Source of the DNA: Promethearchaeia archaeon
GTDB lineage: Archaea; Asgardarchaeota; Lokiarchaeia; Sigyniarchaeales; SOKP01
Direction: 5' to 3'
Assembly: GCA_046483985.1 (NCBI GenBank)
Contig: JAWOCD010000031.1
Coordinates: 32,001 to 96,000 of the forward strand
DNA length: 64,000 nt
The position numbers and the translations under genes were made by a program. Every line of letters starts with the position of its first letter. Position 1 is the first letter of the stretch. Shown here piece by piece: positions 30,480 through 55,684 of the stretch. The notes under the pieces are model-generated. The model did no database searches, had not been told where the DNA came from, and was given only the letters and a program-made list of their open reading frames with translations.

Positions 30480-30608
30480 TCTCCTTTTTTTTTATGGTCC
30501 TTGGAACACCTTATAAAAGAACAAATTATAACTACTACGGACTATACCAAAACAGAAAATTTCTTTAAAATTAAATTAAAGTGAGAAGAACGAAAGGAAG
30601 TCCAGTGA

Positions 30609-30704
30609 TTCATTTTGAAATGGGGGTCATATTTATATTTCAGAAAAGGTATTATGAAATTAACTTCAAATCTAATAATTGTAATTTCAATTTAAAATTG
30701 CCCG
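30609..30704 (+). repeat. Direct repeat copy 2 of the ~95-bp divergent promoter region
   Basis: Matches 23226-23320. Confidence 0.85.
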
Positions 30705-32770: not shown

Positions 32771-32904
32771 ATCCAAAAATTCAAAATTTAGAAATCTATT
32801 ATTTATGTAGAAGTTAATCTTCCATTTTTATAGAAATTAAGAAGACTATAGAAAAAATATAACATATTATTGCAAAAGCATTAAGGATGAGATAAGGATT
32901 TCCG

Positions 32905-34587: not shown

Positions 34588-36330
34588 ATGGTTTATGAAA
34601 AAAAACCTTGGCTAAAATATTATGATGATTGGGTTCCCGAGACCTTAGAGTATCCTGAAATTACTATGTATGAAGGGGTTGCTCAATCATGCCGAGAACA
34701 TAAAGATAGGACAGCGTTAGAATTCTTTGGGTATGAGATGAATTATGGAACTTTGCTAAAAAAGATAGATAAGTTTGCGCGAATATTATATGACTTAGGT
34801 TTACGGGAAGGGGAAAGAATTACAATTGCTCTGCCTACTTGCCCGCAAGGTATTATTGCTTTTTATGCAGCAAATAAACTTGGCGCGATTGCGTCCATGA
34901 TCCACCCACTCTCGCCTCCCAACGAAGTTGAGTTTTATCTTAATCTCAGCGACTCAAAAATGGCTCTGACTTTGGATATGTTCTATGAAAATTTTGAGGA
35001 GATTCTCGATAAAACTTCAGTAGAAAAAGTCATCTTGGGAAAAATCCAAGATTATTTGGGGTTTATCAAAAAAGCTCTGTTTTGGCTCGTAAAGGGAAGA
35101 AAGGTGAAGGTTCCCGACGATCCGAAAATTCATTGGTGGAGTGACCTTGTCGATAAAGAATATACAGAATTTCCGGAATCGTCGATGGGATTTGAAGATT
35201 TAGCAGTAATACTTTATTCAGGAGGGACCACCGGTTTGCCGAAAGGGATAAAACTGTCCAATAAAAATTTTATTTGCGAAGGGTACCAAGTAACTAAATG
35301 GGGGAATCTAAATCAAAATGACTCTATGCTTATCATTTTGCCGATATTTCATGGATTTGGATTAGGAGTATGTGTAAATGCCGGATTAATGGCAGGTGGA
35401 AAGGGGATTTTAATTCCTACTTTTACCCCCGAGAAAGTGGTTAAATTAATCCAGAAGAAACAACCCACCTTTATGGTTGGTGTCCCAACCTTATTTGAAG
35501 CGATGAATAAAGACCCGAATTTCCAGAATGATACTGATCTCAGTTGCTTGCGGGGTGCGTTTTGTGGTGCGGATACTTTACCGCGCATTGTAAAAGAGAA
35601 TTTCGAAGAGATTGCAAGAAAAAGCGGAAATGAAGATTTAATTTTGCGAGAAGGGTATGGATTAACGGAAACGGTCACGGCTGTTGCTGCTATGCCCATG
35701 AATGAATACAGAGAAGGGAGTATAGGAATTCCATTTCCAGATATGCTAATGAAAGTGGTAAAAATGGATGAAAACGAGGAATCAACAATGGAAGAGGCTC
35801 CAATAGGTGAGGAGGGTGAATTCTGTGTTTCGGGACCTGACGTCATGATGGGGTATTTGGATAATCCAGAAGAAACAGAAAATGTTCTCAAAAAGCACAA
35901 GGACGGACGAGTTTGGGTTCACACGGGAGATGTTGGCACAATGGACGAAGATGGGTTCTTTTATTTCAAATTAAGGAAGAAACGGATGATAAAATCTTCA
36001 GGATTTAATGTGTATCCCGTACAAGTGGAGAACATATTGAACGACCATCCCGATGTGGTCAATTCTTGTGTAATTGGAGTTCCGGATAAAGATCAAGTGG
36101 AACGGGTGAAAGCCTATGTGGTCTTAGAAGATCATGAAAAAGCGTCTAAAGAAAAAGAGAAAGAACTTATCAATTACTGCAGAGAAAAGTTGTTGAAGTG
36201 GAAATGTCCGCGAGATGTTGCATTTACCGAGGAGTTACCGAAAACGCTTGTCGGCAAGGTCGCATACAAGGTCTTGGAAGACAAGGAGAAAGAACGACTC
36301 CGCGCCGAAGGAAAATATGCAGGAGATTAA
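34588..36330 (+). CDS. fadD: Long-chain fatty acid-CoA ligase
   Basis: YSGGTTGLPKG, EGYGLTE, HTGDVG, PKTLVGK. Confidence 0.85.
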   Translation: MVYEKKPWLKYYDDWVPETLEYPEITMYEGVAQSCREHKDRTALEFFGYEMNYGTLLKKIDKFARILYDLGLREGERITIALPTCPQGIIAFYAANKLGAIASMIHPLSPPNEVEFYLNLSDSKMALTLDMFYENFEEILDKTSVEKVILGKIQDYLGFIKKALFWLVKGRKVKVPDDPKIHWWSDLVDKEYTEFPESSMGFEDLAVILYSGGTTGLPKGIKLSNKNFICEGYQVTKWGNLNQNDSMLIILPIFHGFGLGVCVNAGLMAGGKGILIPTFTPEKVVKLIQKKQPTFMVGVPTLFEAMNKDPNFQNDTDLSCLRGAFCGADTLPRIVKENFEEIARKSGNEDLILREGYGLTETVTAVAAMPMNEYREGSIGIPFPDMLMKVVKMDENEESTMEEAPIGEEGEFCVSGPDVMMGYLDNPEETENVLKKHKDGRVWVHTGDVGTMDEDGFFYFKLRKKRMIKSSGFNVYPVQVENILNDHPDVVNSCVIGVPDKDQVERVKAYVVLEDHEKASKEKEKELINYCREKLLKWKCPRDVAFTEELPKTLVGKVAYKVLEDKEKERLRAEGKYAGD

Positions 36331-36472
36331 TTCCATTTTCGCGGTAAATATTTCCTCCCTATTTTATTACTTTTTTACCAAATTAGAATTAAAAAATTCT
36401 AACATTTTTATATAATCTAACCCCTAATTGAATTATAATTCAAATTAAATATATAGAAGAAGAAAATTAGAA

Positions 36473-37489
36473 ATGTTTGACGAGTCCAATTGTGCGGAGT
36501 GTGAAAATATCGACTGCTTGATGAGATGTCAATGGATAGAGTTCGAGAATCTTGAGGAAGCTCGAGCGGAAATGAGAAAACTAATCAACGGAGAAAAATC
36601 CCAGGTATTAGAAGAGTGCGTCACGTGTTTTGCGTGCGATGAATATTGTCCCTATAATTCTCATCCATTTGATTTATTTGTCAACCTGCAAGAAAAATAT
36701 GAGGCTCATGAAATTAACCCTGCCGTTATCGAAAACATGATTAAAAGATATCAGCCCCATGAAGAACTCAGAATAAAGGATATTGACCCCGAGAAACCAG
36801 TCCTCAATAAATGTGCCTTTGTAAAATCACATGGCAAACATATGAAAGGACAATTATTTGAAGATCTCCAATATGTAGCGGGGAGAGATTTTTTCTGCAA
36901 TTTAATGTATCACCATTTTGAACGAGATTCGGTAATTCGAGAACGGATACCAAAGATTATCGAAAATATTGAAAAACAAAATATAAAAGAGATGATATGC
37001 TTCCATGATGAATGTTATGGGTTATATGCCTCATATTGTCCGCGAAATGACATTGAGGTTCCATTTGACCCGATTCATGTATTTGAGTATATTTATAATT
37101 ATCTACAAGATAATCCTGGTAAAATTACGAGTCTTAATAAGAAAATCGCATATCAGAGAAATTGTTCAAATCGGTTCATCCCGGAAACAGATAAGTGGGT
37201 GGACAAAATATGTGAACTTATCGGAATAGAGCGGGTTGATAGGAAATACGATCGGGAAAATGCTTTATGTTGCGGTGCGCCGTTCGCTATGTTAGGGAAA
37301 CGGAAAATGGTAAGACCCACTCAGAAAAAAAATATCAAGGATATGAAAGAGCACAATGCCGAATATGCAATCTTTAATTGTCCGATGTGTTTAGATACTC
37401 TGGGATCCAAAGCGAAACGAAAAGACCTAAAACCATATCTCTTGAGCGATTTAGTACGGATGGCCATGGGAGAGGAATTAGATTACTAA
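36473..37489 (+). CDS. Fe-S oxidoreductase (CCG/GlpC/HdrD-like)
   Basis: CVTCFACDEYCP, YQRNC, CCGA, CPMC. Confidence 0.8.
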   Translation: MFDESNCAECENIDCLMRCQWIEFENLEEARAEMRKLINGEKSQVLEECVTCFACDEYCPYNSHPFDLFVNLQEKYEAHEINPAVIENMIKRYQPHEELRIKDIDPEKPVLNKCAFVKSHGKHMKGQLFEDLQYVAGRDFFCNLMYHHFERDSVIRERIPKIIENIEKQNIKEMICFHDECYGLYASYCPRNDIEVPFDPIHVFEYIYNYLQDNPGKITSLNKKIAYQRNCSNRFIPETDKWVDKICELIGIERVDRKYDRENALCCGAPFAMLGKRKMVRPTQKKNIKDMKEHNAEYAIFNCPMCLDTLGSKAKRKDLKPYLLSDLVRMAMGEELDY

Positions 37490-37620
37490 ATGAGGAGATA
37501 AAAGATAGGCTTTTTCTTTTTTTAATTCTTATATTCATTCATTAATATATTCAATCAATTTAAAGATAGATTAGGATGTTACCATTAAATGTGCCAGAGG
37601 TAATGAGAAGATTTCTAAGG

Positions 37621-38793
37621 TTATTTCTTTCGCTTAATTTCTAAAGTGTCAAGTATTTCAATCAAATCTAAAACCTCAAATCCCGCCTCATATTTATCAT
37701 TGGCATCACTAAGATTAGTTCTACAAAAAGGACAAGTCGAAGATAGGATCTCAGCACTTGTTTCTTGAGCTTCTGTAAGACGATCTTTGGAGATTTCCAG
37801 AGCCCAATCGGGGTATCCGATTTTCACACCTCCCCCCGCCCCGCAGCACCATGAATTTTCGCGATTTCTTCTCATTTCGACGAATTCAATACCGGGTATC
37901 TGTTTGTAGACCTCTCGGGGTGCCTCATAGACACCCGCATGCCGACCAAGATGGCAAGGATCATGATATGTTAATCTTTTTTCAAATCTCCCACCAATTT
38001 CTATTACACCTTTATCAAGTAAGTCTTTGATTAATCCTGCGGTATGAAACACTTCAAAATCATAACGTAACCCCAATTTCTTACAATCTTCTTTAATTGT
38101 ACGATAGCAGCCCGCACAGCTTGTGACCACATTGGAAGCTCCCGCATTCTGAATCTGCTTGATATTATAATTCAAAAATTCCTTAGACGGTTCTACTTGG
38201 CCAGTTCTAATTAAAGGACTTGTACAACAATGCTCATCAATAAGCGTAAAATCAGTTCCCGCCTTTTTCAGAAAACGAATGGTATCATCTCGCAATTTTT
38301 GTTGTCGATAATTGCTGGTACATCCGATAAAATAGACCCATTCGGCCTCATCTGGTATATCGTGCTCCTTTTTTAACTCTTCATTATCCGCGTTCTTCTC
38401 TCCATACGGATTAAACATCTCAGGATTAGTAGTTCTTTCTAACAATTGCTTCTGCTTTTCTGGACAATAGCCATTTTGGACAGCTTCCACTCTGGCAAGT
38501 TCGATAAAATCCACCAATAAGTGATTAAATTTATCAAATCGGCAATTTTCCATGCAATTTCCGCATGTTGAGCATGCATATAACACATTTGCAATACTTT
38601 CCTCCCATTCCAGTTTACCTCTGCATAGGGCATAAATAAGCCACATCCTTCCTCCGGTACTGTAGGTCTCAAATTGAAATTTCTGGTAACTCGGACAATT
38701 GATATCCGAGTAATTTGAGGTAAACTTACAATAACCGCAACGGAAACAGCGATGTACGATCTCTTTCCAATTTTCGAATTCTTCTTGAGTCAA
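37621..38793 (-). CDS. Fe-S oxidoreductase (GlcF/HdrD-like, CCG domains)
   Basis: CSTCGNCMENC, YHDPCHLGR, CCGAGGG, CPFC. Confidence 0.9.
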   Translation of the reverse strand: MTQEEFENWKEIVHRCFRCGYCKFTSNYSDINCPSYQKFQFETYSTGGRMWLIYALCRGKLEWEESIANVLYACSTCGNCMENCRFDKFNHLLVDFIELARVEAVQNGYCPEKQKQLLERTTNPEMFNPYGEKNADNEELKKEHDIPDEAEWVYFIGCTSNYRQQKLRDDTIRFLKKAGTDFTLIDEHCCTSPLIRTGQVEPSKEFLNYNIKQIQNAGASNVVTSCAGCYRTIKEDCKKLGLRYDFEVFHTAGLIKDLLDKGVIEIGGRFEKRLTYHDPCHLGRHAGVYEAPREVYKQIPGIEFVEMRRNRENSWCCGAGGGVKIGYPDWALEISKDRLTEAQETSAEILSSTCPFCRTNLSDANDKYEAGFEVLDLIEILDTLEIKRKK

Positions 38794-38794
38794 A

Positions 38795-40165
38795 TTACTT
38801 CACCTCCCAATTTCCAGGATTCATAATCCCGTTTGGATCAATGGCCTTACGAATAATATGAAAAAGCTTTTTGTAGCCATCATCCATATATTTCATTACT
38901 TCTTTTTGACCAGCCAGCTCCGTTTTCCATGGAATACCTCCTAAATTTAAGACCATTTTATTTGTCTCATGCAAGGCAGATCGTGCATTCTCCATATCAT
39001 TCGGATCCGCGCGATTAAAAGAATAAGTAGCGGCAAACATTACATTGTGCGCTTTTCCAATGATTCTGCATACTAAGGTGGGAACGATGTTATGATCATT
39101 GGAGATTTTACTTGCCTTGCTGATGGCATCTGGAATTTTATCTATAGGCACAAAAGAGCCCACATATTCAAATCCCCCTCCTTTTCGGAAATCAGCAGCT
39201 CTTGCGGCAAACTGGGGTTTTTCCAAAAAGATGTCTCTTAATTTATCGGGGGCCTTCATATATCGCGCTCCGTTCTTTCTATAAATTCGTTTTAATTTTT
39301 TAATTTTCCTTTCAATAACCTGTTCTTTATCTCCCGTAACATAGGTCATAAAGAAACAATATCCTTTCATCCATTTGGGTTTATCTTGCTTTCCGATTAA
39401 AATATCCTCTGCTAACTCGGTGTAGGTTATTTTATTTATCAATTCTGGGATATTAGATTCATCTTTCATTAATGCGAATGCAATTTCTCTTATTTTAGGC
39501 TTCGGAAAAAGGCGAATAGCTAATTTAGTAACAATTCCCATGGTGCCAAATGAACTAATAAATAACCCAATCATATCGGGGATAGGGCCTCTAGTAAACC
39601 AAGAATCCGAGATGGCACAAGATCCTAGTTTACATACCTGTCCATTGGGGAGTAATACTTCTATTCCATTGATCATTTCCCCATGATTGCCGTATTTATG
39701 AGAAAGATAGCCGGAACCGTGAATAAGCGCATTGCCCGCCACGGTAACTGACGGAGGGGCATCCGGTATAGGTGGTTGTAAATTAGGATAATTTTCATTC
39801 AAAAAATTAAGTAACTGACCGGAAGAAACACCAGGCTCAATAAGGGCATAGCGACTTGATTTATTAATTTCAATGATTTTGTTCATTCGTTTTAAATCTA
39901 AAACAACGCCGCCTTTAATCGGAATAGTAAGTCCACTTAATGTTAAACCTGCACCCATAGGTATAACAGGTATGGTTTCTTGGTTGGCTAAATTAAGAAT
40001 TTGTTGAATTTCCTCGGTATCTTGCGGCATGACAACTATATCCACATCACGGGGTTTTGAGGCACCTGGATCTCTTGAATAAATAAATAATTCTTCTTTT
40101 CTATTAGAGACAAACTTTTTTCCTACGATGGATTCTAATTTTTCATAGATCTCATTTTTATCCAA
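38795..40165 (-). CDS. FAD-binding oxidoreductase (GlcD/D-lactate dehydrogenase-like)
   Basis: PMGAGLTLSG, LDLKRMN, GTMGIVTK, DPNGIMNPG. Confidence 0.9.
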   Translation of the reverse strand: MDKNEIYEKLESIVGKKFVSNRKEELFIYSRDPGASKPRDVDIVVMPQDTEEIQQILNLANQETIPVIPMGAGLTLSGLTIPIKGGVVLDLKRMNKIIEINKSSRYALIEPGVSSGQLLNFLNENYPNLQPPIPDAPPSVTVAGNALIHGSGYLSHKYGNHGEMINGIEVLLPNGQVCKLGSCAISDSWFTRGPIPDMIGLFISSFGTMGIVTKLAIRLFPKPKIREIAFALMKDESNIPELINKITYTELAEDILIGKQDKPKWMKGYCFFMTYVTGDKEQVIERKIKKLKRIYRKNGARYMKAPDKLRDIFLEKPQFAARAADFRKGGGFEYVGSFVPIDKIPDAISKASKISNDHNIVPTLVCRIIGKAHNVMFAATYSFNRADPNDMENARSALHETNKMVLNLGGIPWKTELAGQKEVMKYMDDGYKKLFHIIRKAIDPNGIMNPGNWEVK

Positions 40166-43476: not shown

Positions 43477-44922
43477 ATGTCTAAACTTAAAAATTATTTG
43501 AAAGAACTGGAAATTTGGAAACAAGCGCTATGGGGGATAATTATTATTGGAGGGCCCGTTATTACCACCCTCCTTTTGATTTGGCTCTTTTCTTTACATG
43601 GAACTTTGGGTATTTTCCTCTGGCATCCTTTATTCTTTTCCATTATCGTTATACTGGGAATTTTTGCGGTTTTGGGATTTAGTTTTGCTTTACTCAATAT
43701 TTTTCTTCCTAATCGAAGAGAATCAAAACTCTTTTCTATCCTTAGAAAATGTTCATGGATCTTTTGTATCACTTGTTTAATTACTTCCGTTTCGTTTATA
43801 GGGTATGTGGGACCGAAACTTACCCATACCGCGGGGTCAACTGCGCCTCAGATTTTAATTTGTGATGGAGAAGGGGAGAATGGGATTCCTAAAATGGCGG
43901 TCACCTTTTGGACCGAAAGGCCCACCACGAATACACTCAAATGGGGAAACGAATCCTTATCAAAAACCATAACGGAAGAAAAAGCGACCCATCAACATGC
44001 ATTTATCTTGGATAAATTAAATCCCGACACAGAATATTGGTATCAAATAAATGAAGAAGGGGAAATTTACAATTTTACTACCGCATCGGAAGACAATGAC
44101 AAACTGAGACTTGCAATTACTTCTGACGCCCATTTTGGCCGGTCGGAGAGTAGACCCGGCATTACAAGGGATATTTTAAAGGAAGTTACAGATCCGGGCA
44201 ACTCTTTTGATAGTCTCTTTTTCTTGGGTGATCTTGTAGAATACGGATTCATGGATAGTCAGTGGAAGCAATTTCTAGACTCTGTGTCCCCCTATACTAC
44301 AAGAATACCCTTCAGAACTCTATGTGGTAATCATGATACGATATTTGGTGGTGTAAAATATTACAAAGATTATTTATATCCAGAGAAAATGCCAACAGAT
44401 ACAGGATCTCGGCTATATTACCGAATCGATATAAATAATGTCCACATTTTTGCTTTGAATCTTGAATGGGGGCTTGAAACCTATACCGCAGAACAAAAAG
44501 AATGGCTTGAAAGCGAAATTGCAAAAGTTGAAGAAGATGATTGGACCATTGTAATGTCTCATAGTTTTTTCTATAGCTCAGGAAGTGTTTATGGATTTAA
44601 GTCATGGGCAGATCAACCTGATATGCTTGATGCCTTTGAGGATTTATTCATCGAAAATGATGTAGACCTCGTCTTTTCTGGCCATAATCACCATGTGGAA
44701 GTTTTAGAAAAGGAGGGAATTTATTATCAAATCGTGGGGGCTGCGGGGGCCGTCCCTGATCCCAAAGCAGATACAATATCAGACGCAAGCGAATGGTACA
44801 TGAATATCGAAACGGATTCAGAATTCGGATTCTTCGAAGTTGATATAGACGGAAACAATGCCACCCTAAATTACCGGAATAAAAACTATGATTCCCTCTA
44901 TAATATTACAATAGAGGAATAA
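43477..44922 (+). CDS. Membrane-anchored FN3 + metallophosphoesterase (purple acid phosphatase-like)
   Basis: 3 TM segments; SDAH, GDLV, GNHD, GHNH. Confidence 0.88.
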   Translation: MSKLKNYLKELEIWKQALWGIIIIGGPVITTLLLIWLFSLHGTLGIFLWHPLFFSIIVILGIFAVLGFSFALLNIFLPNRRESKLFSILRKCSWIFCITCLITSVSFIGYVGPKLTHTAGSTAPQILICDGEGENGIPKMAVTFWTERPTTNTLKWGNESLSKTITEEKATHQHAFILDKLNPDTEYWYQINEEGEIYNFTTASEDNDKLRLAITSDAHFGRSESRPGITRDILKEVTDPGNSFDSLFFLGDLVEYGFMDSQWKQFLDSVSPYTTRIPFRTLCGNHDTIFGGVKYYKDYLYPEKMPTDTGSRLYYRIDINNVHIFALNLEWGLETYTAEQKEWLESEIAKVEEDDWTIVMSHSFFYSSGSVYGFKSWADQPDMLDAFEDLFIENDVDLVFSGHNHHVEVLEKEGIYYQIVGAAGAVPDPKADTISDASEWYMNIETDSEFGFFEVDIDGNNATLNYRNKNYDSLYNITIEE

Positions 44923-45283: not shown

Positions 45284-46483
45284 ATGTCTCAATCTGAAAT
45301 AAAAAGATCAGACACAAAAAAACCTACAAGTAAATCTCTCGTAAAACAGGCGATAATTAAATTACTGCTTATTGTGTTAGTTTTAAGTCCTATACTGATG
45401 TTTTTCATTCTCTCGCCCTTGTTCTATTTATATGATCCTAATGAGCATGGTCCATGGGTTTCATGGTCTGGAAATCCGGATGAACAGGTGTATATTTCTT
45501 GGGAAACAGAGGAGAAAACCTCGGGAATTCTCAAATATGGTATCGATGAAGGCGATCTCAACCAAAGTGTGACTGAATCAGAGAAGACAAACATCCATCA
45601 TGTCAATTTAACTGGCTTATCAGCGGATACTACGTATTACTATGAGGTGGAAATTGATGGGAAAGTATTTGGAAAAGGAAAATTTAGAACAGCCCCATCC
45701 AGCCAAAAGGATTTTACTTTTGGATTATATTCTGATACGCAGCAAAACTTCGGACCAGGGCATCATTTTCGAGTGGGAAACGCGTTAAAAGATAAGAAGT
45801 ATGCTTTTATTGTGAATGTAGGAGATATCGTCCAAGATGGTGGGAAAAAAGAACATTATAATAATTTTTTCAAAATAGGCTCTGAATATTTGGATACTAT
45901 TCCCTTTATTCCTGTAATTGGTAACCATGACCAACGAAACGTTACGCTATTTACCGAATACTTTATCAATCAAGTCAACAAATCGCAATATCACTTTTAT
46001 TACAGTTTTAATTGGAGTAATGTGCATTTCTGCTTCCCTCATTTTGCCTATGGAAGTGAATCCGAAATGACGGATGCGCAATTAAACTGGCTAAAAAAAG
46101 ACCTATCACGGTCCCAAGATAAAGCATTTCGCATTGTGATGTTTCATTGTCCCATTAAAGGAGCCTCCTTTTTCGGCCCCAATGAAGTGTTAATCGAAAA
46201 AGTACAACCAATATTGCTCGAATATAATGTTACCGCTACGGTCCATGGCCACGAACATCATTTCGAACGCGGAAATATTAAGGGTATGACATATTTTATT
46301 TCTGGCGGCGGGGGCGGAGCACTGGATGTAGGGCTTCGCCCACTACCAGAAACAGAGGTCTTAACAGAATCTCCTAATTTCACGGAGGTTCACGTAACCG
46401 AAAATGAAATAAATTTCAAGACCATGACGCTCGAGGGTTCAGTTATTGATGACTTTACTATCCAGGCAGAGGAGGGGGTATAA
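45284..46483 (+). CDS. FN3 + metallophosphoesterase (purple acid phosphatase-like), paralog
   Basis: 1 TM segment; SDTQ, GDIV, GNHD, GHEH. Confidence 0.88.
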   Translation: MSQSEIKRSDTKKPTSKSLVKQAIIKLLLIVLVLSPILMFFILSPLFYLYDPNEHGPWVSWSGNPDEQVYISWETEEKTSGILKYGIDEGDLNQSVTESEKTNIHHVNLTGLSADTTYYYEVEIDGKVFGKGKFRTAPSSQKDFTFGLYSDTQQNFGPGHHFRVGNALKDKKYAFIVNVGDIVQDGGKKEHYNNFFKIGSEYLDTIPFIPVIGNHDQRNVTLFTEYFINQVNKSQYHFYYSFNWSNVHFCFPHFAYGSESEMTDAQLNWLKKDLSRSQDKAFRIVMFHCPIKGASFFGPNEVLIEKVQPILLEYNVTATVHGHEHHFERGNIKGMTYFISGGGGGALDVGLRPLPETEVLTESPNFTEVHVTENEINFKTMTLEGSVIDDFTIQAEEGV

Positions 46484-46486
46484 AGA

Positions 46487-47140
46487 ATGATCGAAACCTT
46501 TACATTTGCCCCATACCTTATGCTGTATTTTGCCGCCATTATTCAAACCTTCGTCATGATCTCCTTCATTGTGGCACCACAGAATTATAAAGCACAAAAT
46601 AAATTCGTTAGGATCGTGCACAGCTTCTTTATGCATTTTGGTTTTACATTCATGTTTTTGTTCGGAGTCGTCTTTCTTGATACTGCTCTTGCATGGTTAT
46701 TCGGGCAATGGATGTATGCGGACTGGAGATATCAGCTTCCCGCGGTCTTGTTTATCCTATTCTTGGGAATTCAATATGTGATCGGAAGCATGTTTATTAA
46801 TCCTCGAATTAGCACCCTCATCTACTCAATTTGTGCGATACTCGTTATTCTGCTCGGAATTCACATCTATATTCCCTCAATGGACTTGTGGACGAGCGTG
46901 GTCAACTTCTTGAGAATCTTGATTCTTCTGCAGATTATCTATCTCCTTATATGGGGAATTAACACCTATTTGGACTCAAGGGAAAGATTATCATGGAAAG
47001 AAAAGAATAAAAAATTATGGGATATTTCCCCTAAATTTCACGAGATATTTTCAAGGGGATTGAATATTATCATCTGGATTATTATGATGGTCGAAGTGTG
47101 GCTCAAGCTATTCGGGAGCTCTCTCTTTATCTGGTTTTAA
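46487..47140 (+). CDS. Hypothetical membrane protein
   Basis: About 6 TM segments; 3 bp after the phosphatase gene. Confidence 0.75.
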   Translation: MIETFTFAPYLMLYFAAIIQTFVMISFIVAPQNYKAQNKFVRIVHSFFMHFGFTFMFLFGVVFLDTALAWLFGQWMYADWRYQLPAVLFILFLGIQYVIGSMFINPRISTLIYSICAILVILLGIHIYIPSMDLWTSVVNFLRILILLQIIYLLIWGINTYLDSRERLSWKEKNKKLWDISPKFHEIFSRGLNIIIWIIMMVEVWLKLFGSSLFIWF

Positions 47141-47768
47141 GATCCTACATTAAATCTTTCTTATTTCACAAATTAAATCTTTAAGGAAAATCAAGCTAAA
47201 AGAAGAGTGGTCAATGTGTCGCCTACTTTTTTTATGTTCACTAATTATTTTTTGGGTAATTAATGATATTAGGCTAATTTTTTACGTTAGTATTTTTTCA
47301 GCGATCCATTGACCAATATATATTATATCAAAGCCGGCGTGTTCGTGAAAATCAGAAAATCAGCAAATCTTTACTGAACTTTATGGAAATGGATTATCCA
47401 TAATTAAGATTTATTAATAAATTCCTTTCAACCAATATTCTAAACTATCATCAGAGTTCCAGAATTCTTATAATTAAAATCTGGAGTGAATTTAAAAATC
47501 ATTTTCTAAAAATTCTAAAATTATTAGAATTAGAAGAAACGCATTAAAATAATCTATCTTCTCTGAACAAATCCAAACACAATATTTACGAATATCATTA
47601 ATTTGTGCAAAACTAACTAATAATATTCGTATTAATTAGAAATTCTTTTTAAGTAAACTAGGGTTAAATTTTATAAATAGTTATTTGATTAAAAACAAAT
47701 TTCGCTTAATCAAACAAACAGACTATTAATTAAATCATTTTATTAAAAAAGGATAAGAAGGTATTCTT

Positions 47769-48554
47769 ATGAAAAGCGATCAAGAGTTGATCAAGAAGTT
47801 ACGGTCAAACACTTTGAAATGCGTCATTTTCGATTTTGATGGGACGGTATACGATATTAAAGAACCCCTAGAAGATGCCGTAAAAGAGGTAATAGAATCT
47901 TATAACATTCAAGCCGACGAAGAGTTATTGCTGCAGGAAATCGCGGCTATTATTGAGTCAATACAAGCGCATCCCATTCCAAAAATCATTCTTCAATCGT
48001 ATGACATCTTTAATCAGGTAACAGCGCTGAGCGACATTAGATTTTTAAAAAAACTGAAAATAGCGGCAAAAATGTTCACAAAATATCAAGCAAATGCAAA
48101 AGAATCCTCAGTTTTCGCAAGTGTCGAACCAGTGGTGCAACATTTCAAAAAAGCGGCTGAAATAATTATCGTGTCTCATAACCAAACGGCACACATTGAA
48201 GATCACTTAGAAAAGGCACGGTTAACTTCGTATTTTGATAAAATTTACGGTGCAGATAAACTTGAAGCATTAAAACCTGATCCCAGAGTTTTTGACTTTT
48301 TCCTCGAGAAAGAGGAAGGATATAGTCCGAAGGATATTGTGGTTATCGGGGATATGCCTACAGATATACAAGCTGGAAATGAAGCAGGCTTCTGGACAAT
48401 CGCAGTTCAGAGCGGAATTACAAGTCGCGACATGTTAGCGAATTACGGACCGGATTTATTGCTAAATAATCTTGGTGAACTCTTAGCAATATTAAAGAAT
48501 GAAGACCAATTACCTTCAAAATCCAAAATCAATAAAGCAAAAGTAAAGATGTGA
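47769..48554 (+). CDS. HAD family phosphatase
   Basis: FDFDGT, VSHN, KPDP, GDMPTD. Confidence 0.9.
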   Translation: MKSDQELIKKLRSNTLKCVIFDFDGTVYDIKEPLEDAVKEVIESYNIQADEELLLQEIAAIIESIQAHPIPKIILQSYDIFNQVTALSDIRFLKKLKIAAKMFTKYQANAKESSVFASVEPVVQHFKKAAEIIIVSHNQTAHIEDHLEKARLTSYFDKIYGADKLEALKPDPRVFDFFLEKEEGYSPKDIVVIGDMPTDIQAGNEAGFWTIAVQSGITSRDMLANYGPDLLLNNLGELLAILKNEDQLPSKSKINKAKVKM

Positions 48555-48564
48555 GGTTTTAATT

Positions 48565-50241
48565 ATGGTTATTACTGAATTAGAAACTAAAGATGTTGTA
48601 AAAGAAAAAGATAGAAAAGAACAACCAGAAAGAGAAGAATTAGAACAAAAGGAGCCAGACTTTAGGAAAACTCATACCAAATTATTGTATAAGTTATTTA
48701 AGTATAATTTATTTGATATATCGAATGATATTTTACGAAAGATTCTTGATCAATTTAATCTTTTAGATAAATTCGGAGAATTACAATGGTGGGCGGCGTA
48801 CATTTGGGTACGTGAAGCGATGAGAAGATTATGGAATTTTAATTATGATCGGGTCGATGGCAATCTTTTCCCCGAATATGGGGGTGGAATCTTAGTCTCC
48901 AACCATCAATCGCACCTAGATCCGTTTTTCGTGGCGGGGGCTACCACTCGTAGGATTCATTGGATGAGCAAGGACGAAAATTTTAAAACCCCAATTATGC
49001 GTAGCTTGTTCACCAATCTCAGCGCATTTGAAGTCAAACGGGAAGCTAAGAATAAAGAAGCATGGAACAAAGCAATAAGTATTTTGGAAAATGATAACTG
49101 GGTTGGAATCTTTCCAGAGGGGACACGTTCAAAAGATGGCTCGATAGGAGAATTCAAAACCGGTGCCGTACGAATGGCCATCGAAACGGGACAACCGATA
49201 GTTCCCGCCGCTGTCATCGGCTCAAGAAACGCTTTACCTAAGGGAAAATTAGTTATGAAGCCCGTACAAGTGAAGGTTCGGGTTGCGGAACCCCTCTATT
49301 ACGACGAATACGACATAGACACAGTCTCTTACAAGAAAGTCCGAGAATTGACTGAGGAACTCCGGGAGATTGTAATTGGCCTCAAGAATGGAACCTATAA
49401 TAAGGACAGCGATTACCATGTGGAGGACCTTTCGATTGGAGCTCCGGATACAGCCGAAGAAAGCATTAAAAAATTCAATCTCATGGACCGAATCAAGTCC
49501 TTGGGAAAGGATACATTACAATTAATAGATGATATCTGGTATTCAATTCTCCGTGGTGCCGAAGTTTTCGATTTGAAGGAACATTTTCAAGAAGCCATTT
49601 ATCACTTTTCTGGGAATGTCGTAAATGGCATGTGCGATTTAATGCTACCATACCGGACCATCGATTATGATGAACATATTCCCGAAGAAGGAGGGGCTAT
49701 AATCTGCTCCAACCATAACTCCGAATGGGATGTTATCATACTCGCCACCACCTTCCAACAGCGAGGGGAAGTCGTCTATCAGATGGCAAAGGAATCTCTT
49801 TTTAAGATACCGATAGTGAACGGATGGGTGCGAACATGTCATGCATTTCCATTACGCAGAGACGCACATGATGAGGGTTCTTATAATTATGCGAGAGAAC
49901 TCTTGGAAAATGGAAAAAGAGTTATAGTATATCCTGAAGGGACCACCAATCCCGGAAACGGACAATTCTTGGAAGGTCACACCGGTGCAATTCGATTAGC
50001 AATTGAAGCAAAAGTTCCCATCATCTTGGTTGGAATAACCGGCACAGAGGATATATTTCCAAAACATGCAAAAATGTTAAATTTCGGACAAGGATGCATC
50101 CTTAAGGCGGGAGAATTGTTTCGAGAACATGAACAGTATTTTGATAAGCCCATGCCAGATTATAAGGAACTAAAACGAATGACGGATAACATGATGGCAC
50201 GTATTGAGGATTTAACATTTTATGACGATCCAAATGCATAA
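48565..50241 (+). CDS. plsC: Tandem two-domain PlsC-family (LPLAT) acyltransferase
   Basis: Domain 1 NHQSHLD and FPEGTRS; domain 2 NHNSEWD and YPEGTTN. Confidence 0.9.
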   Translation: MVITELETKDVVKEKDRKEQPEREELEQKEPDFRKTHTKLLYKLFKYNLFDISNDILRKILDQFNLLDKFGELQWWAAYIWVREAMRRLWNFNYDRVDGNLFPEYGGGILVSNHQSHLDPFFVAGATTRRIHWMSKDENFKTPIMRSLFTNLSAFEVKREAKNKEAWNKAISILENDNWVGIFPEGTRSKDGSIGEFKTGAVRMAIETGQPIVPAAVIGSRNALPKGKLVMKPVQVKVRVAEPLYYDEYDIDTVSYKKVRELTEELREIVIGLKNGTYNKDSDYHVEDLSIGAPDTAEESIKKFNLMDRIKSLGKDTLQLIDDIWYSILRGAEVFDLKEHFQEAIYHFSGNVVNGMCDLMLPYRTIDYDEHIPEEGGAIICSNHNSEWDVIILATTFQQRGEVVYQMAKESLFKIPIVNGWVRTCHAFPLRRDAHDEGSYNYARELLENGKRVIVYPEGTTNPGNGQFLEGHTGAIRLAIEAKVPIILVGITGTEDIFPKHAKMLNFGQGCILKAGELFREHEQYFDKPMPDYKELKRMTDNMMARIEDLTFYDDPNA

Positions 50242-51323
50242 TGTTCGAGGGAATCAGTATGAGTTCTGAAGAATATAAAATTAAGGTCGGCATCCCCCGA
50301 GCATTTCATTATTATCGATATTTTCCTTTTTGGAAGAAGTTATTTGATGAGTTTGGGGTAGAAATTATTTTGAGCCCCGGGACCAACAAAAAAATCGTCC
50401 AAGAGGGGGTTTCCTATGCATTGGGGGATCTTTGTTTGCCTTTGAAGGTATATTACGGACATGTGTTGAAATTAATTGAAAAACATCCAGAATTAGATTA
50501 TTTATTTGTTCCGCGTTATGTTTCGGAGGTGCCTGATTCTTATTTCTGCCCGAAGTTCCTTTCTTTACCAGATGTAATCAAAATTGTGCCTAATGTGCCT
50601 CCAATTTTGCATTTCGAGGTTAATGTGAAAAAGAAACCCATTTCTATGTCGGTAATAGATATGGCAAAAGAATTAGGGATAGGGCAGAGAAAGGCATTGG
50701 ACGCATATTATAAGGCAGATGAGTATTTTAATAAATACGTATCTTTTTTGAGGAGCGGAGCGCCCGTAAATTATGCACTACGTCTGGTAAAAAACAATAA
50801 AGCTTTTAAGCTCCCAAAGAAAAAACAAAAATCTGGTGAAATCAAACTACTTCTTTTAGGACATGAATATAATATTTTTGATACCTATGTAAATTTAGAT
50901 TTTCAAGAAAAATTGCGGGAAGAAAACGTTGAGGTAATTACTAAGGAAAATTTGCCCCAAAAAGTATTTCAAACCCCAGTAGTTGTAAACAAAAAGCTAA
51001 AAAACTATTGGAGGCACGAAGAAGAAATCATGCAAGCGATCCGATATTTTCTTACTAAAGGTCGCGACGAAATTGATGGCGTCATCTTTTTAATTAGTTT
51101 TGCATGTGGCCCCGATAGTATTATTTCCGAATTAATTATGCGGGATATGAAAGTTGTAAGACTTCCGTTTCTCCAGATTATAATGGACGAACATACTGGA
51201 GAAGCAGGGTTACTTACTCGTGTTCAATCATTTACAGATATGATAAAACGAAAAAAGAAGAAATTAAAAATGCGAGAAAAAGAACAGCAAACTACGAGTT
51301 CTCAAAAAGCGGAGGTAATATAA
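50241..51323 (+). CDS. DUF2229 acyl-CoA dehydratase activase-related protein (PlsA/Ger reductase-like domain)
   Basis: VGIPRA..FPFW, CLPLKVYYGH, CPKF, SFACGPD, DEHTGEAGLLTR. Confidence 0.85.
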   Translation: MFEGISMSSEEYKIKVGIPRAFHYYRYFPFWKKLFDEFGVEIILSPGTNKKIVQEGVSYALGDLCLPLKVYYGHVLKLIEKHPELDYLFVPRYVSEVPDSYFCPKFLSLPDVIKIVPNVPPILHFEVNVKKKPISMSVIDMAKELGIGQRKALDAYYKADEYFNKYVSFLRSGAPVNYALRLVKNNKAFKLPKKKQKSGEIKLLLLGHEYNIFDTYVNLDFQEKLREENVEVITKENLPQKVFQTPVVVNKKLKNYWRHEEEIMQAIRYFLTKGRDEIDGVIFLISFACGPDSIISELIMRDMKVVRLPFLQIIMDEHTGEAGLLTRVQSFTDMIKRKKKKLKMREKEQQTTSSQKAEVI

Positions 51324-51326
51324 CAG

Positions 51327-52523
51327 ATGTTGGTATCATTTCCAAATATGGGTTATAACTGGGTAGCTTTTAAAACATTATTCGACTGTCTAGACGTTCC
51401 TGTCGTGTTACCCGATCCGACAAATAGAAAATCAGTCAAGTTCGGTGTGCGGCATAGTCCTGAATTTGTCTGTTTTCCGTTTAAAGCGACGCTTGGAGAT
51501 TTCAAAAATGCTTTAGAGAAAGGCGCAGACACTCTCGTGATGGCAATTGATTGCGGTCCTTGCCGGTTCGGTTTTTATGCGAGCGCCCAAGAACGAATTC
51601 TGCGAGATTTAGGATATGACGATTTTCGAATGGTCCCTTTAGATCAAGCTGATCTCTTAGAATTAAAGTGGGTCAATACCTTATTTAAAGTGACAGAGGA
51701 TCAAGGACTATTTAAATATGCAAAGGCCGTTAAAGCAGTCATCTTTTTCCTAAAAAAATCAAAATATATAGAGGATATTCAGACTGCAGAGGGGATTTTC
51801 CGGGCATATGAAGAAAATAAAGGCGATACCACCCGAACGGTGGATAAACTGCTGGACAAATTAGATCAAATGAATACTTTAAAAGGGCTTCGAAACTTCC
51901 GTTCGGTTATCAAGGAAGAATTTAATCAAATTGACGTAGATAAAAGTCGCAACACCTTAAAGGTGGGTATTTCTGGTGAAATTCACATCACTTTAGAACC
52001 TTATGTTAACTTAGATATCCGTCGTAAGTTGGGTAACATGGGCTGTGAAATACATCAGTCATTAAGTCTTTACGATTGGATAGTACATAAATTTCATTTA
52101 AATTACCACCGAAAATGGTTAAAACATTTAGCAGAGCCTCATATGTCAATGGACATTGGCGGGGAAGCTGTCTGGGTATTAGGCGAATATATTGATAAAG
52201 CGAATGCAGGTTTTGACGGATTTGTCCATCAATATCCCTTTACTTGCATGCCAGAACTTACGGCTCGGACAATTATTGAAAATAAATTAAAGCCCGAATA
52301 TGATTTGCCTGTAATTTTCTTTTCATTTGATGAGCAATCAGGACAAGAAGGCTTCAGAACGCGTCTGGAAGCATTCTGCGATTTAATGCAATCAAGGCGA
52401 TCTCAGAGTTTGATCGGCCCCGGAAGTGAAACAATCAAAAAAGACAAGCAAGATGAGGTTAAATTGAATAATTATGGTAATGTATTTTATCAAGAAATTA
52501 AACAATTAATTCAAACTAAATAA
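51327..52523 (+). CDS. 2-hydroxyacyl-CoA dehydratase-like subunit (PlsR/Ger-like)
   Basis: CFPFK, GPCRFGFY, PFTCMPE, DEQSGQEGFRTRLEAF. Confidence 0.8.
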   Translation: MLVSFPNMGYNWVAFKTLFDCLDVPVVLPDPTNRKSVKFGVRHSPEFVCFPFKATLGDFKNALEKGADTLVMAIDCGPCRFGFYASAQERILRDLGYDDFRMVPLDQADLLELKWVNTLFKVTEDQGLFKYAKAVKAVIFFLKKSKYIEDIQTAEGIFRAYEENKGDTTRTVDKLLDKLDQMNTLKGLRNFRSVIKEEFNQIDVDKSRNTLKVGISGEIHITLEPYVNLDIRRKLGNMGCEIHQSLSLYDWIVHKFHLNYHRKWLKHLAEPHMSMDIGGEAVWVLGEYIDKANAGFDGFVHQYPFTCMPELTARTIIENKLKPEYDLPVIFFSFDEQSGQEGFRTRLEAFCDLMQSRRSQSLIGPGSETIKKDKQDEVKLNNYGNVFYQEIKQLIQTK

Positions 52524-52534
52524 TAAAGAAGGAA

Positions 52535-53569
52535 TTGAATATGGTTCAAGCTAGAGAAAATATTACAAGTACTAAAAAAATAAAACAAGATGCATTTCTT
52601 GGCATCGATGTAGGAAGTGTAAGTTGTAAATTTGTATTGATAGATGAAGATGGGAATATGCTAACTAATGTGTTTCTTAGAAACCGCGGATCACCGATTG
52701 ATTCAGTGAAAGTTGGGATGGCAAAAATGAAATCCCATATAGAGGAAAACGAAGAACTACAGGAATACAAGATACGATCGTGTGGAACAACAGGATCAGC
52801 CCGATATTTAACAAAAGCAGTCGTTGGCGGTGATCTTGCAAAGACCGAAATTATTGCTCATGCAGTTGCTACACAATCAATGTATCCCGACGTTAGAACA
52901 ATCCTTGAAATCGGGGGGCAAGACAGTAAAATTATCATCCTTCGTGATGGGATTATCGTTGATTTTGCAATGAATTCAGTATGCGCCGCTGGAACAGGAT
53001 CTTTTTTAGATCACCAAGCAGAACGATTAAATATTCCTATAGAGGATTTTGGAAATTATGCTATCAAATCCGATAGTCCTGTATCCATTGCGGGACGATG
53101 TACGGTATTTGCTGAATCGGATATGATCCATAAACAAAACGCAGGACACTCAAAAGAAGATATCATTGCGGGGCTTTGTGATTCCTTGGTACGCAATTAC
53201 TTAAACAACGTAGGAAAAGGAAAAGAATTGGCCGAACCAGTTGTGTTCCAAGGTGGAGTTTCTTATAACGAGGGTATTATAGAAGCATTTGAACGGCATT
53301 TGGAGTGTGAAGTGACAGTTCCCAAGCATAATGTATTAATGGGAGCACTCGGGATGGCAATTTTAGTAAGGGAATATTTTTACGAACATGGAAAGGAAAC
53401 AAGTTTCCGTGGATTAAACGTCGCACAAACTGAATTTCATACCTCTACATTTCATTGTGGAGATTGCCCCAACAATTGCGAAATCGTTGAAGTAAAAATG
53501 CCCAACCAGGGAGATAAGATAATAGCACGCTGGGGAAGTAGATGTGGTAAATGGAGTATAGGGTGGTAG
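52535..53569 (+). CDS. ASKHA ATPase activase (BadF/BadG/BcrA/BcrD, HgdC-like) with C-terminal Cys cluster
   Basis: GIDVGS, EIGGQDSK, CAAGTGSFL, RCTVFAESD, FHCGDCPNNC..SRC. Confidence 0.92.
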   Translation: MNMVQARENITSTKKIKQDAFLGIDVGSVSCKFVLIDEDGNMLTNVFLRNRGSPIDSVKVGMAKMKSHIEENEELQEYKIRSCGTTGSARYLTKAVVGGDLAKTEIIAHAVATQSMYPDVRTILEIGGQDSKIIILRDGIIVDFAMNSVCAAGTGSFLDHQAERLNIPIEDFGNYAIKSDSPVSIAGRCTVFAESDMIHKQNAGHSKEDIIAGLCDSLVRNYLNNVGKGKELAEPVVFQGGVSYNEGIIEAFERHLECEVTVPKHNVLMGALGMAILVREYFYEHGKETSFRGLNVAQTEFHTSTFHCGDCPNNCEIVEVKMPNQGDKIIARWGSRCGKWSIGW

Positions 53570-53627
53570 TGGAGAAATGAGTGGAAATTTAATCTATTAT
53601 TTATAAAATTAAAATAATTAAAATGGA

Positions 53628-53843
53628 GTGAAAAGCAAAGTGGAAAATGTAGAAAAGATTTTCAAAAATATAAAAAAACTTGGGAAAGAAATTTTTGACA
53701 CAGCAAACCATCGCACAAAGCTGCGAACAATATTTGATGCGTATACAGAAGAAGCTATCCCAACTTTTGTGAAAGAGGAAGATTTGAAAGAATATTATGA
53801 GGAACAAATGGAAAAAGTAAATGAGTTTATTTATAAATTATAA
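53628..53843 (+). CDS. Small hypothetical helical protein
   Basis: Within the operon; GTG start. Confidence 0.5.
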   Translation: MKSKVENVEKIFKNIKKLGKEIFDTANHRTKLRTIFDAYTEEAIPTFVKEEDLKEYYEEQMEKVNEFIYKL

Positions 53844-53890
53844 GGATTTTAAAAAGTTTTAAAACAAAGTAAAAATAAAAAAAAGAGTGA

Positions 53891-54607
53891 ATGAAAATGG
53901 TTGAAACAGCTTATAATACAACGGAAGAAAGCGCGGGTTTCGATAAAGATGAACTCATAAATGATCTCCTATATGGAGCAACAAAGGGACTCGGAAAAAT
54001 GGTGTCTAAGTATGTAAATAATTTGAAGATTGAAGGAAAAGGAAATGTGCCTATGCGTGGGAAGGCAATTTTAACAACAATTTCAAAAAACGCCCTTCGA
54101 GACATGGTCCTTATCAGTCAAGTATCAGGTAGAAAAATCCATTTTATGCTTGATCCAAAATTGATGAAGCAAAAAGTGGTTGGAGACTTCTTAAAACGAT
54201 TGGGGATGTTTCGAAGTACGATCAGTAAAGACGACAAAGAACCAATAAATAAAGTGTTTAAGATCTTAAATAAGAAGAAAGAACTGGTCGCCATGACGCC
54301 CGAGGAGAAATTAGGCAGAGAAACCATAATTAAAGCAATGGCCAGCATTATCAAGTTTGCAATCGCCGGAGATGCTCCAATAGTCCCGGTCGCGATTTAC
54401 ACGAGAACTAACAAAATTCTCAATATGATTCCAACAAGTTCATTGGTAGTACGGGTTGGAACACCGCTAAAATTAGACAGAAAATTAACCCGTGATAAAT
54501 ATCGCCCAAAACGATATAAAGCAGCGGAAGAGATAGTTAATATTATCGAACATCTGAAAAATGAGACCCCGATAGACGAATCAGACAAGAATTCATCATC
54601 AGAATAA
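53891..54607 (+). CDS. Degenerate PlsC-like protein
   Basis: IEGKGNVP, IHFM, MTPE, APIVPVAI, VRVGTPL; HxxxxD histidine missing. Confidence 0.7.
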   Translation: MKMVETAYNTTEESAGFDKDELINDLLYGATKGLGKMVSKYVNNLKIEGKGNVPMRGKAILTTISKNALRDMVLISQVSGRKIHFMLDPKLMKQKVVGDFLKRLGMFRSTISKDDKEPINKVFKILNKKKELVAMTPEEKLGRETIIKAMASIIKFAIAGDAPIVPVAIYTRTNKILNMIPTSSLVVRVGTPLKLDRKLTRDKYRPKRYKAAEEIVNIIEHLKNETPIDESDKNSSSE

Positions 54608-54625
54608 TAAATGAGCTGAAAGACA

Positions 54626-54895
54626 GTGGAAAAATTAAAAGAGAAAAACCCCGAAGAATCCTCAGATAAGAATTGCCATCCCAAAGAAAATGAAGATCTT
54701 AATATGAAGAAGGTGAAGAAAATGTTCGGCGACTTAGATATTGATAAGGAACTGAGTGGATTATTCTATAATTCAATAAAACTTTTCTTTGAACTTGGAA
54801 GGGAACTCACCGAAAATCTAGACGAAGAGCTGTATGACAAAGCACTTAAAATGTATCAGCAGAAAAAGAATAAAAAAGAAAAAAGTAACATTTAA
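54626..54895 (+). CDS. Small hypothetical protein
   Basis: 18 bp after the upstream gene. Confidence 0.5.
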   Translation: MEKLKEKNPEESSDKNCHPKENEDLNMKKVKKMFGDLDIDKELSGLFYNSIKLFFELGRELTENLDEELYDKALKMYQQKKNKKEKSNI

Positions 54896-55084: not shown

Positions 55085-55261
55085 TTAGTCCTTCTTCTGT
55101 TCCTCACGTTTAATATCAAGGAAACGCTCGACTCGGCGGCGAACAGCATCTATAATGAATTCCGAGTGGGATCTATAACCAAGTTCCTTTTGCTCCTCAA
55201 TAATTTTAAGTATTGATTCAACCAAATCTTCGGGGATTCTTACTGTGCGATAATTAGGCAT
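55085..55261 (-). CDS. Ribbon-helix-helix (CopG/Arc-like) regulator, 58 aa, absent from the ORF track
   Basis: MPNYRTVRIPEDLVESILKIIEEQKELGYRSHSEFIIDAVRRRVERFLDIKREEQKKD. Confidence 0.85.
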   Translation of the reverse strand: MPNYRTVRIPEDLVESILKIIEEQKELGYRSHSEFIIDAVRRRVERFLDIKREEQKKD

Positions 55262-55547
55262 AATTAAAACAAACAGACAATGTTAATTTTATATTTTTTT
55301 TTTTTTTTATATTATGGAGAAAACAAATATGATTTTTTCTTGACACGCTAACTATTTCTCTCTGTGTTCTATGAATAAAAAAATTCAAATATATTAATAG
55401 TTTTGTATTTTTTTGTTAATTTACATTAAATTCTTTGACTATAAAGTGAAAGTACGGGGAAAATATTGAATTATTAATGAGTTATCCTTGTTTAAAATGA
55501 TTAAAAAATAAAAAATCTCTTCAATTATATAATAAACTATTCATTTA

Positions 55548-55586
55548 TAATTCCTTTTAATTCCTTTTAATTCCTTTTAATTCCTT
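55548..55586. repeat. 10-bp tandem repeat TAATTCCTTT, about x4
   Basis: Read directly from the sequence. Confidence 0.8.
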
Positions 55587-55684
55587 CATAAATCCAACTT
55601 TTTCTAAAAAAATTAGATAAGATTATCCACAGACAGTAATTGAAATGAGAAATACGCCAGAAACTTCAATAAACAAAACTTCAA

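Follow-up and report, generated by a model that had tools for sequence, protein, structure and literature searches.

We analysed a 64,000-nucleotide stretch of a Promethearchaeia archaeon genome (GenBank assembly GCA_046483985.1, contig JAWOCD010000031.1, positions 32,001 to 96,000 of the forward strand), which is called the window here and within which coordinates are counted unless another locus is named. At 47769-54895 the window carries eight open reading frames (ORFs), all on the + strand, that encode a phosphatase, PlsC-family acyltransferases, an activase, two subunits related to the anaerobic ester reductases PlsA/PlsR and Ger, and two small proteins. A sequence-only reading had described them as eight co-oriented genes with gaps from -1 to 58 bp. 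The ORF coordinates, which we verified, agree with this description (gaps of 10, -1, 3, 11, 58, 47 and 18 bp in operon order), all eight reading frames are intact, and the domain inventory of that reading is matched by Pfam. Judged by homology, the locus holds an unfused, single-activase PlsA/Ger relative within a Lokiarchaeial PlsC operon, with a putative function. We put at about an even chance the reading of this unit as a conserved Lokiarchaeial operon that makes and then modifies fatty-acyl glycerolipids, with ester-to-ether conversion as our best hypothesis for the modification. The features are listed in operon order:

47660..47768, + strand: putative promoter, predicted from the sequence; this AT-rich leader contains a TATA-like element, ttttataaata, some 90 bp ahead of the HAD gene, whose ATG is preceded by a purine-rich stretch.
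47769..48554, + strand: HAD, 261 aa; phosphatase of the HAD-IA type and first gene of the operon (Pfam HAD_2, 2e-23).
48565..50241, + strand: PlsC2, 558 aa; tandem PlsC-family acyltransferase (PF01553 twice, 1e-59).
50241..51323, + strand: Red1, 360 aa; DUF2229 protein (PF09989, 1e-46) with a short HGD-D-like C-terminal tail.
51327..52523, + strand: Red2, 398 aa; paralogue of Red1 and putative PlsR equivalent (partial PF09989, 7e-10).
52535..53569, + strand: Act, 344 aa; single-domain ASKHA activase (BcrAD_BadFG, PF01869, 4e-46).
53628..53843, + strand: sm71, 71 aa; hydrophilic, helical protein with no Pfam family above cut-off.
53891..54607, + strand: dPlsC, 238 aa; PlsC-fold paralogue without the catalytic His (PF01553, 2e-7).
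54626..54895, + strand: sm89, 89 aa; hydrophilic protein of no family and last gene of the operon, with a T-rich run after its stop codon.

The host genome (assembly of 4.06 Mb, 97% complete) is Lokiarchaeial and archaeal. The earlier concern that the contig might prove bacterial did not materialise, as the named close homologues of the operon proteins belong to Promethearchaeota or Lokiarchaeota metagenome-assembled genomes (MAGs).

The reductase module consists of Red1, Red2 and the activase. Red1 matches PF09989 with 159.6 bits (cut-off 29.4), and its match to HGD-D (PF06050) is sub-threshold and confined to residues 276-335 (19.8 bits against a cut-off of 28.4). In Red2, only the first third is recognised as DUF2229 (39.3 bits). 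The motifs quoted in the sequence-only reading are present, GPCRFG and PFTCMP in Red2 and CGDCPNNC near the C-terminus of the activase. Red1 has three Cys in total (C65, C103 and C289), and these, together with C49, C79 and C307 of Red2, are kept in 100% of the fused and unfused rows of our alignment. From this pattern, Red1 is a putative [4Fe-4S] catalytic subunit and Red2 a putative second catalytic subunit equivalent to PlsR. A sequence search of the PDB was marginal, and the superfamily was confirmed by fold: for the AlphaFold model of Red2 (mean confidence, pLDDT, 88.6), the top 20 Foldseek matches are DCCP, HadBC and BzdNO/MbdON only (TM about 0.5, E 2e-7 to 2e-5). The activase scores 186 bits with TIGR00241 and ends in a Cys-rich extension (residues 276-344, CxxCxxxC...C) whose homologue in fused PlsA/Ger-type proteins is the linker behind their second activase domain (jackhmmer, E 1e-9 to 3e-20).

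Next, we placed Red1 and Red2 among their relatives. In hhalign comparisons, the unfused family ranks first, the fused PlsA/Ger type second and the HGD-D proteins of the same genome a distant third. For Red1, the E-values are 5e-112 (unfused bacterial), 1.5e-43 (fused type) and 3e-7 and 3e-5 (own-genome HGD-D); for Red2, they are 2.4e-92, 4e-23 and 2e-3 and 7.5e-5, respectively. The prediction that the proteins are related to PlsA/PlsR/Ger rather than to fermentation dehydratases therefore holds (1.5e-43 and 4e-23 against 3e-7 to 2e-3). In an exhaustive HMMER search with Red1, the best 150 representatives were either single proteins of some 330 aa or fusions of Red1 and Red2 with a length of some 700-770 aa, and the 1400-aa fused form was not among them. 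Trees were built from the Red1 and Red2 halves and rooted on the paralogue (132 rows under LG+G4, 92 rows under LG+C20 with posterior mean site frequencies), with support from the Shimodaira-Hasegawa-like approximate likelihood ratio test (SH-aLRT). The fused PlsA/Ger-type clade was defined by architecture, and the trees were made without the validated PlsA, PlsR and Ger sequences; NCBIfam holds no PlsA/Ger model, and a scan of genome contigs for the fused-type alignment matched Lachnospiraceae only. The two halves are reciprocally monophyletic (100), and the fused forms make up one clade in each half (98-99% SH-aLRT). Under both models the window proteins lie in a separate clade (99-100), together with the PlsC-linked genes of families f1 and f2, FAD-fused paralogues and a few stand-alone metagenomic proteins. 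The order in which the clades branch is poorly supported: one analysis makes the fused clade the sister of all others, and the other has it arise from among the unfused forms. By their sequences, Red1 and Red2 belong to an unfused group of PlsA relatives. The claim of the sequence-only reading is to be divided here: the kinship with the PlsA/Ger type against HGD-D stands (hhalign), and membership in the PlsA/PlsR/Ger fused clade does not. The trees place the module outside that clade, and the operon activase has one domain, not two.

Comparison with characterised systems gives the same picture. PlsA/PlsR and Ger are built from activase, DUF2229 and paralogous domains and convert sn-1 esters into vinyl or alkyl ethers anaerobically, and all confirmed alkyl-ether producers have the BBD arrangement (two BcrAD_BadFG domains, then DUF2229). 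With PlsA/PlsR (Clostridium perfringens CPE1194/1195; single-gene PlsA in Enterococcus, Lactococcus and Bifidobacterium) the window shares the BcrAD_BadFG activase, Red1 and Red2 (PlsR), three invariant Cys in each half of the reductase and the Cys-rich linker that follows the activase, and oxygen-sensitive, ATP-driven Fe-S chemistry would be expected of both. Unlike PlsA/PlsR, the window module is made of three separate genes, with one activase domain on its own gene downstream of Red2 instead of two fused upstream of Red1, its host is an archaeon, and its operon also encodes PlsC, HAD, a dead PlsC and the two small proteins. With Ger (Thermotoga maritima Tmari_0479; Desulfatibacillum alkenivorans SHJ90043) it shares the superfamily and domain logic (BBD...H), and sibling genomes have a fused Asgard form within this very operon; the window genome itself differs in having no fused form and, in all, two DUF2229 genes and two activases. 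That fused Asgard type is widespread in Promethearchaeota, and its best named bacterial relatives are Thermodesulfobacteriota/Deltaproteobacteria (56% identity). The true nearest relatives of the module are the activase-less 'additional PlsA homologues' of Bacillota and other bacteria (28-45% identity; hhalign 5e-112 and 2e-92). These are unfused Red1 and Red2 or Red1-Red2 fusions of about 750 aa with a separate activase gene, and they have the Red1-Red2-activase gene order in common with the window. Neither PlsC nor HAD was linked to them in the three contexts inspected (L109-L111). HadBC, HgdAB with HgdC, BzdNO/MbdON and DCCP share the fold of Red2 and the principle of an ATP-dependent activase; they differ in sequence (11-14% identity), and the HGD-D model matches only the 60-residue Red1 tail, below cut-off.

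Turning to the acyltransferases, PlsC2 matches TIGR00530 with 174 bits (cut-off 103) and has the motifs NHQSHLD/FPEGTR in one half and NHNSEWD/YPEGT in the other; by these HxxxxD and PEG motifs, both domains are predicted to be catalytically intact. In this, and in scoring above the NCBIfam domain cut-off, PlsC2 is like the bacterial PlsC/LPAAT enzymes (TIGR00530; T. maritima PlsC type), from which it differs in joining two domains in one polypeptide, in showing no N-terminal membrane anchor in a hydropathy scan, and in being accompanied by a conserved His-less paralogue. In that scan (19-residue windows, Kyte-Doolittle mean threshold 1.6, core strands disregarded), the tandem PlsC has no window above 1.6 outside core strands; amphipathic membrane binding is possible. 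The paralogue dPlsC had been described as degenerate, rightly, for the 238-aa protein has neither the His nor the Gly of the PEG motif. The HxxxxD His is replaced (by D, K, E, G or P) and the Asp kept in 13 of 13 dPlsC orthologues, which are 53-59% identical.

The two small ORFs had been taken as genes, and homologues at 14 (71-aa) and 6 (89-aa) related loci show them to be real. At all 14 loci sm71 is kept between the activase and dPlsC, and the sm89-homologous ORFs follow dPlsC. Together with dPlsC, the two small proteins are conserved accessory parts. The reductase-less genome G083 (100% complete; L112:7145-11421, with HAD, tandem PlsC, a 204-aa ORF with a Toxin-deaminase domain, and dPlsC) separates them: dPlsC stays beside the tandem PlsC, and sm71 is missing along with the reductase genes. 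dPlsC thus travels with the tandem PlsC and sm71 with the reductase. The idea that dPlsC presents substrate as a subunit of the reductase is weakened by this genome, in which dPlsC is kept without the reductase and sm71 is lost; a complex prediction of Red1 and Red2 with dPlsC scored 0.00, which carries no weight either way.

The HAD gene matches HAD_2 with 83.6 bits, Hydrolase at 2e-20 and, weakly, PGP_phosphatase at 1e-6, and the protein has a HAD core and the DxDxT nucleophile motif in the form FDFDGT. It reaches no NCBIfam equivalog at cut-off, so that a substrate cannot be assigned. Orthologues of 41-49% identity stand at the head of the operon in L005, L010, L013, L016 and L112-L115.

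Synteny was read by tblastn on 30 related loci, and distribution from a taxonomy-balanced sample of 120 genomes of the phylum. Two sibling genomes (L010 and L016) repeat the full order HAD-PlsC2-Red1-Red2-Act-sm71-dPlsC, and L005, L013, L017 and L004 have it with insertions. In a sister family from the same taxonomic order (L021 and L022), PlsC-PlsC, as two genes, is followed by Red1-Red2-Act, at 43-59% identity. Close Red2 orthologues were found in 13 of 15 f1 genomes and both f2 genomes, distant ones (32-37% identity) in 6 of 9 f5 genomes, where the modules sit among housekeeping genes, and none in the 23 other families of the sample. The check proposed earlier, whether synteny with plsC is conserved across Lokiarchaeia, shows it to be kept in the window's family and its sister family; in the 120-genome sample the operon type reaches no further than these two families of one Lokiarchaeial order. 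PF01553 is present in f1, f2, f14, f16, f22 and f25. Among the 4129 homologues of Red2, the top 120 share 68-86% identity with it, and most of them have Asgard names. Some of these 70%-identical proteins carry NCBI names from several Asgard phyla (Thor, Odin, Hermod); conservation across Asgard phyla on the basis of such names was rejected, close orthologues being limited to f1 and f2.

In two relatives, G113 and G008, a fused gene (Act-Act-DUF2229, about 980 aa) lies within the same operon, directly after Red1 and thus between Red1 and Red2 (L014:16905-19838, - strand; L115:8055-10934, + strand). In G113 it is followed by a family-less 479-aa ORF (L014:15478-16914, - strand), a second unfused module, in which Red1' carries a fused N-terminal FAD_binding_4 domain (PF01565), and then Red2. 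The FAD_binding_4::Red1' protein (L014:12631-15168, - strand; L011:12628-14424, - strand; protein P0276) has its own activase and Red2' behind it. As a flavin domain, FAD_binding_4 is of the MurB/alkyl-dihydroxyacetone phosphate (alkyl-DHAP) synthase type, and by analogy the fusion suggests an extra redox step, for example the reduction of a vinyl ether. Such stacks of paralogues probably explain why many MAG contigs break just upstream of Red2.

We then surveyed the host genome for lipid and reductase genes. Red1 and Red2 are its only DUF2229 genes, and the 4.06 Mb hold only three PF01553 domains, the two of PlsC2 and that of dPlsC. There are two activase genes in total, the 344-aa one of the operon and a distinct 263-aa one, and no fused Act-Act-DUF2229 (PlsA/Ger-type) gene. 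The genome also encodes a GGGP synthase and a GpsA-like gene. Elsewhere in the genome lie three canonical HGD-D pairs (2-hydroxyacyl-CoA dehydratase/benzoyl-CoA reductase (BCR)-like) with the short 263-aa activase as their own (contigs C9, C71 and C32, loci L117-L122); they are unrelated to the operon and, by their families, point to amino-acid or aromatic fermentation chemistry. The FadD announced at 34588 is present in the window as a gene for a FadD-like AMP-binding ligase (34588-36330, 580 aa). In the region 34588-40165 it is followed by CCG-domain and FAD_binding_4/FAD-oxidase_C proteins (GlcD/GlcF-like), and the flavoprotein among these belongs to the same broad family as alkyl-DHAP synthase.

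From gene content, motifs, fold, homology, linkage and distribution, we infer the following course of events. The tandem PlsC, probably a soluble or peripheral enzyme, would take acyl-CoA, possibly from the FadD-like ligase 13 kb upstream, and acylate glycerol phosphate (glycerol 3-phosphate or glycerol 1-phosphate) or a lyso-lipid at two positions. Dephosphorylation of phosphatidate or of a head-group intermediate would fall to the HAD phosphatase. The single-domain activase, as a dimer, would hydrolyse ATP and push a low-potential electron into a Red1/Red2 heterodimer, in which each subunit may hold an Fe-S cluster on its three invariant Cys. The carbonyl of an acyl ester could then be reduced to give a vinyl or alkyl ether, as is done by bacterial PlsA/PlsR and Ger.

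We favour ester-to-ether conversion on several grounds. This one operon contains every PF01553 domain and both DUF2229 genes that the 97%-complete genome has, and the PlsC linkage is kept across two families, at 43-59% identity in the sister family. Fused genes of PlsA/Ger architecture lie inside the same operon in G113 and G008, the Cys triads and the activase linker are common to the module and the fused proteins, and hhalign ranks the fused type far above the genome's own HGD-D. In addition, PlsA/PlsR and Ger, made of the same domains, have this activity in the literature. Several observations weigh against this reading. The module never falls inside the fused PlsA/Ger-type clade (99% SH-aLRT, both halves), the fused forms are 22-26% identical to it (E 1e-11 to 1e-18), and the unfused group to which it belongs is without a functionally characterised member; a 2026 paper calls the role of activase-less PlsA homologues in Bacillota 'unclear'. 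PF01553 was found in none of the 9 f5 genomes searched, though f5 has Red1-Red2-Act, and no lipid genes were seen beside the bacterial unfused homologues (L109-L111, the taxonomy of L109 and L110 being judged from neighbouring genes). At the G083 locus there is no Red1, Red2, activase or sm71, and Red2 has no match in that genome as a whole. Within the host genome, PlsY was not found, and the hydropathy scan found no transmembrane helix in any of the eight operon proteins. Finally, the cultured Lokiarchaeon analysed so far showed archaeal lipids only, by a method that may have missed ester lipids. Of these points, we consider that the position outside the fused clade, the relatives in genomes in which PlsC was not found and the G083 locus weaken the ester-to-ether reading.

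There is a different reading, which we regard as possible though on balance unlikely: the acyltransferases and the reductase share the operon, but the reductase does not act on a glycerol ester and is an ATP-driven radical enzyme for another step. This could be the tailoring of the acyl chain or CoA donor (thioester dehydration or reduction, as in the BCR/HAD superfamily, in which HAD stands for 2-hydroxyacyl-CoA dehydratase) or a reaction on a different metabolite. The reductase has the fold and Cys triads found throughout the BCR/HAD/DCCP superfamily, in which the members with solved structures use CoA thioesters or small molecules as substrates. Unfused relatives without PlsC occur in bacterial-looking contigs and in the Asgard family f5, G083 keeps the acyltransferase part without the reductase, and the window clade lies outside the fused PlsA/Ger-type clade. 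Yet hhalign sets the DUF2229 proteins far nearer to the fused PlsA/Ger type than to the HGD-D enzymes, and the genome has three separate canonical HGD-D pairs with their own short activase that would serve CoA-type chemistry. The persistence of the PlsC linkage at 43-59% identity and the insertion of fused PlsA/Ger-like genes in the same operon in relatives also argue against a reductase with another substrate.

The operon might instead remodel or salvage exogenous bacterial glycerolipids, for example from syntrophic partners, and not make lipids de novo, which we judge to be improbable. The PlsC domains would then re-acylate lyso-lipids and HAD trim head groups, with the reductase converting or detoxifying the resulting products. 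A salvage role would fit the negative search for a PlsY- or PlsB-type first acyltransferase outside the operon, the soluble or peripheral nature of all operon proteins and the presence of the archaeal GGGPS pathway for the main membrane. Against it, the two intact PF01553 domains of the tandem protein could by themselves carry out the two acylations, the genome has a GpsA-like gene as well as an acyl-CoA ligase, and Pfam reveals nothing lipase-like or uptake-like in the operon.

An extension of the ester-to-ether hypothesis, to which we attach only a small probability, takes the unfused DUF2229 module as a distinct ester reductase, acting for example on the sn-2 or another ester. Three paralogous systems that some Lokiarchaeia have stacked within a single PlsC operon, namely the unfused module, the fused PlsA/Ger-like gene with its 479-aa partner and the FAD_binding_4::Red1' module, would convert diacyl glycerolipids stepwise into non-isoprenoid dialkyl diethers, and FAD_binding_4::Red1' might reduce vinyl ethers as MurB reduces an enol ether. 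If true, an archaeal-style ether membrane lipid would be built from fatty acids, and enzymes would be supplied for sn-2 ether formation and vinyl-to-alkyl ether reduction, both listed as unknown in the bacterial literature. Lastly, a decaying, functionless remnant of a bacterial transfer is barely credible: insertions often interrupt the operon and one genome is without the reductase part, but none of the eight reading frames is broken, Red2 keeps 68-86% identity over more than 100 clusters, and the catalytic Cys and PlsC motifs are conserved, as are even the His-less PlsC and the 71-aa ORF.

Whether Asgard archaea make fatty-acid-based lipids is a standing question for the 'lipid divide' and for eukaryogenesis, on which the evidence so far consists of scattered homologues (PlsC, PlsY and fused Ger). 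With ester-to-ether conversion as the hypothesis to be examined, the locus offers a compact, conserved eight-gene unit for cloning and anaerobic testing, and it gives a first plausible context to a large group of unfused PlsA relatives with the activase in trans. The bearing on eukaryogenesis put forward by the sequence-only reading is indirect and was overstated, as were broader claims for Asgard archaea, the operon type being limited to two families of one order. Eukaryotic plasmalogen synthesis is an unrelated aerobic pathway, which further limits this relevance. We found no paper on this operon or on the unfused form in archaea; the presence of Ger homologues and PlsC in Asgard archaea is already published. 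PlsC and PlsY were reported in Lokiarchaeota by 2019, and Ger homologues in Lokiarchaeota and Heimdallarchaeota were published in 2022 with criteria of e <= 1e-50 and >= 30% coverage of a query of about 1400 aa. Such criteria would be expected to find only the fused type and to miss the unfused genes of the window.

Several neighbours of the operon were also recorded. Upstream, on the operon strand, lie two calcineurin-like/purple-acid-phosphatase genes and a family-less 217-aa ORF (43477-44922, 45284-46483 and 46487-47140, + strand), separated from the operon by a 628-bp AT-rich spacer; a link of these three genes with the operon was not seen at the other loci read. Downstream, 55085-55261 (- strand) encodes a 58-aa ORF that resembles a ribbon-helix-helix regulator by a look at its sequence, and a short tandem repeat with the unit aattcctttt occupies 55540-55590. 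Further upstream (30581-34419), a leucine-rich repeat (LRR) protein of 729 aa adjoins a 504-aa protein with TPR and a Zc3h12a-like NYN RNase domain. In L004, too, LRR genes are found, where they interrupt the operon, and in L006 they lie on its flank.

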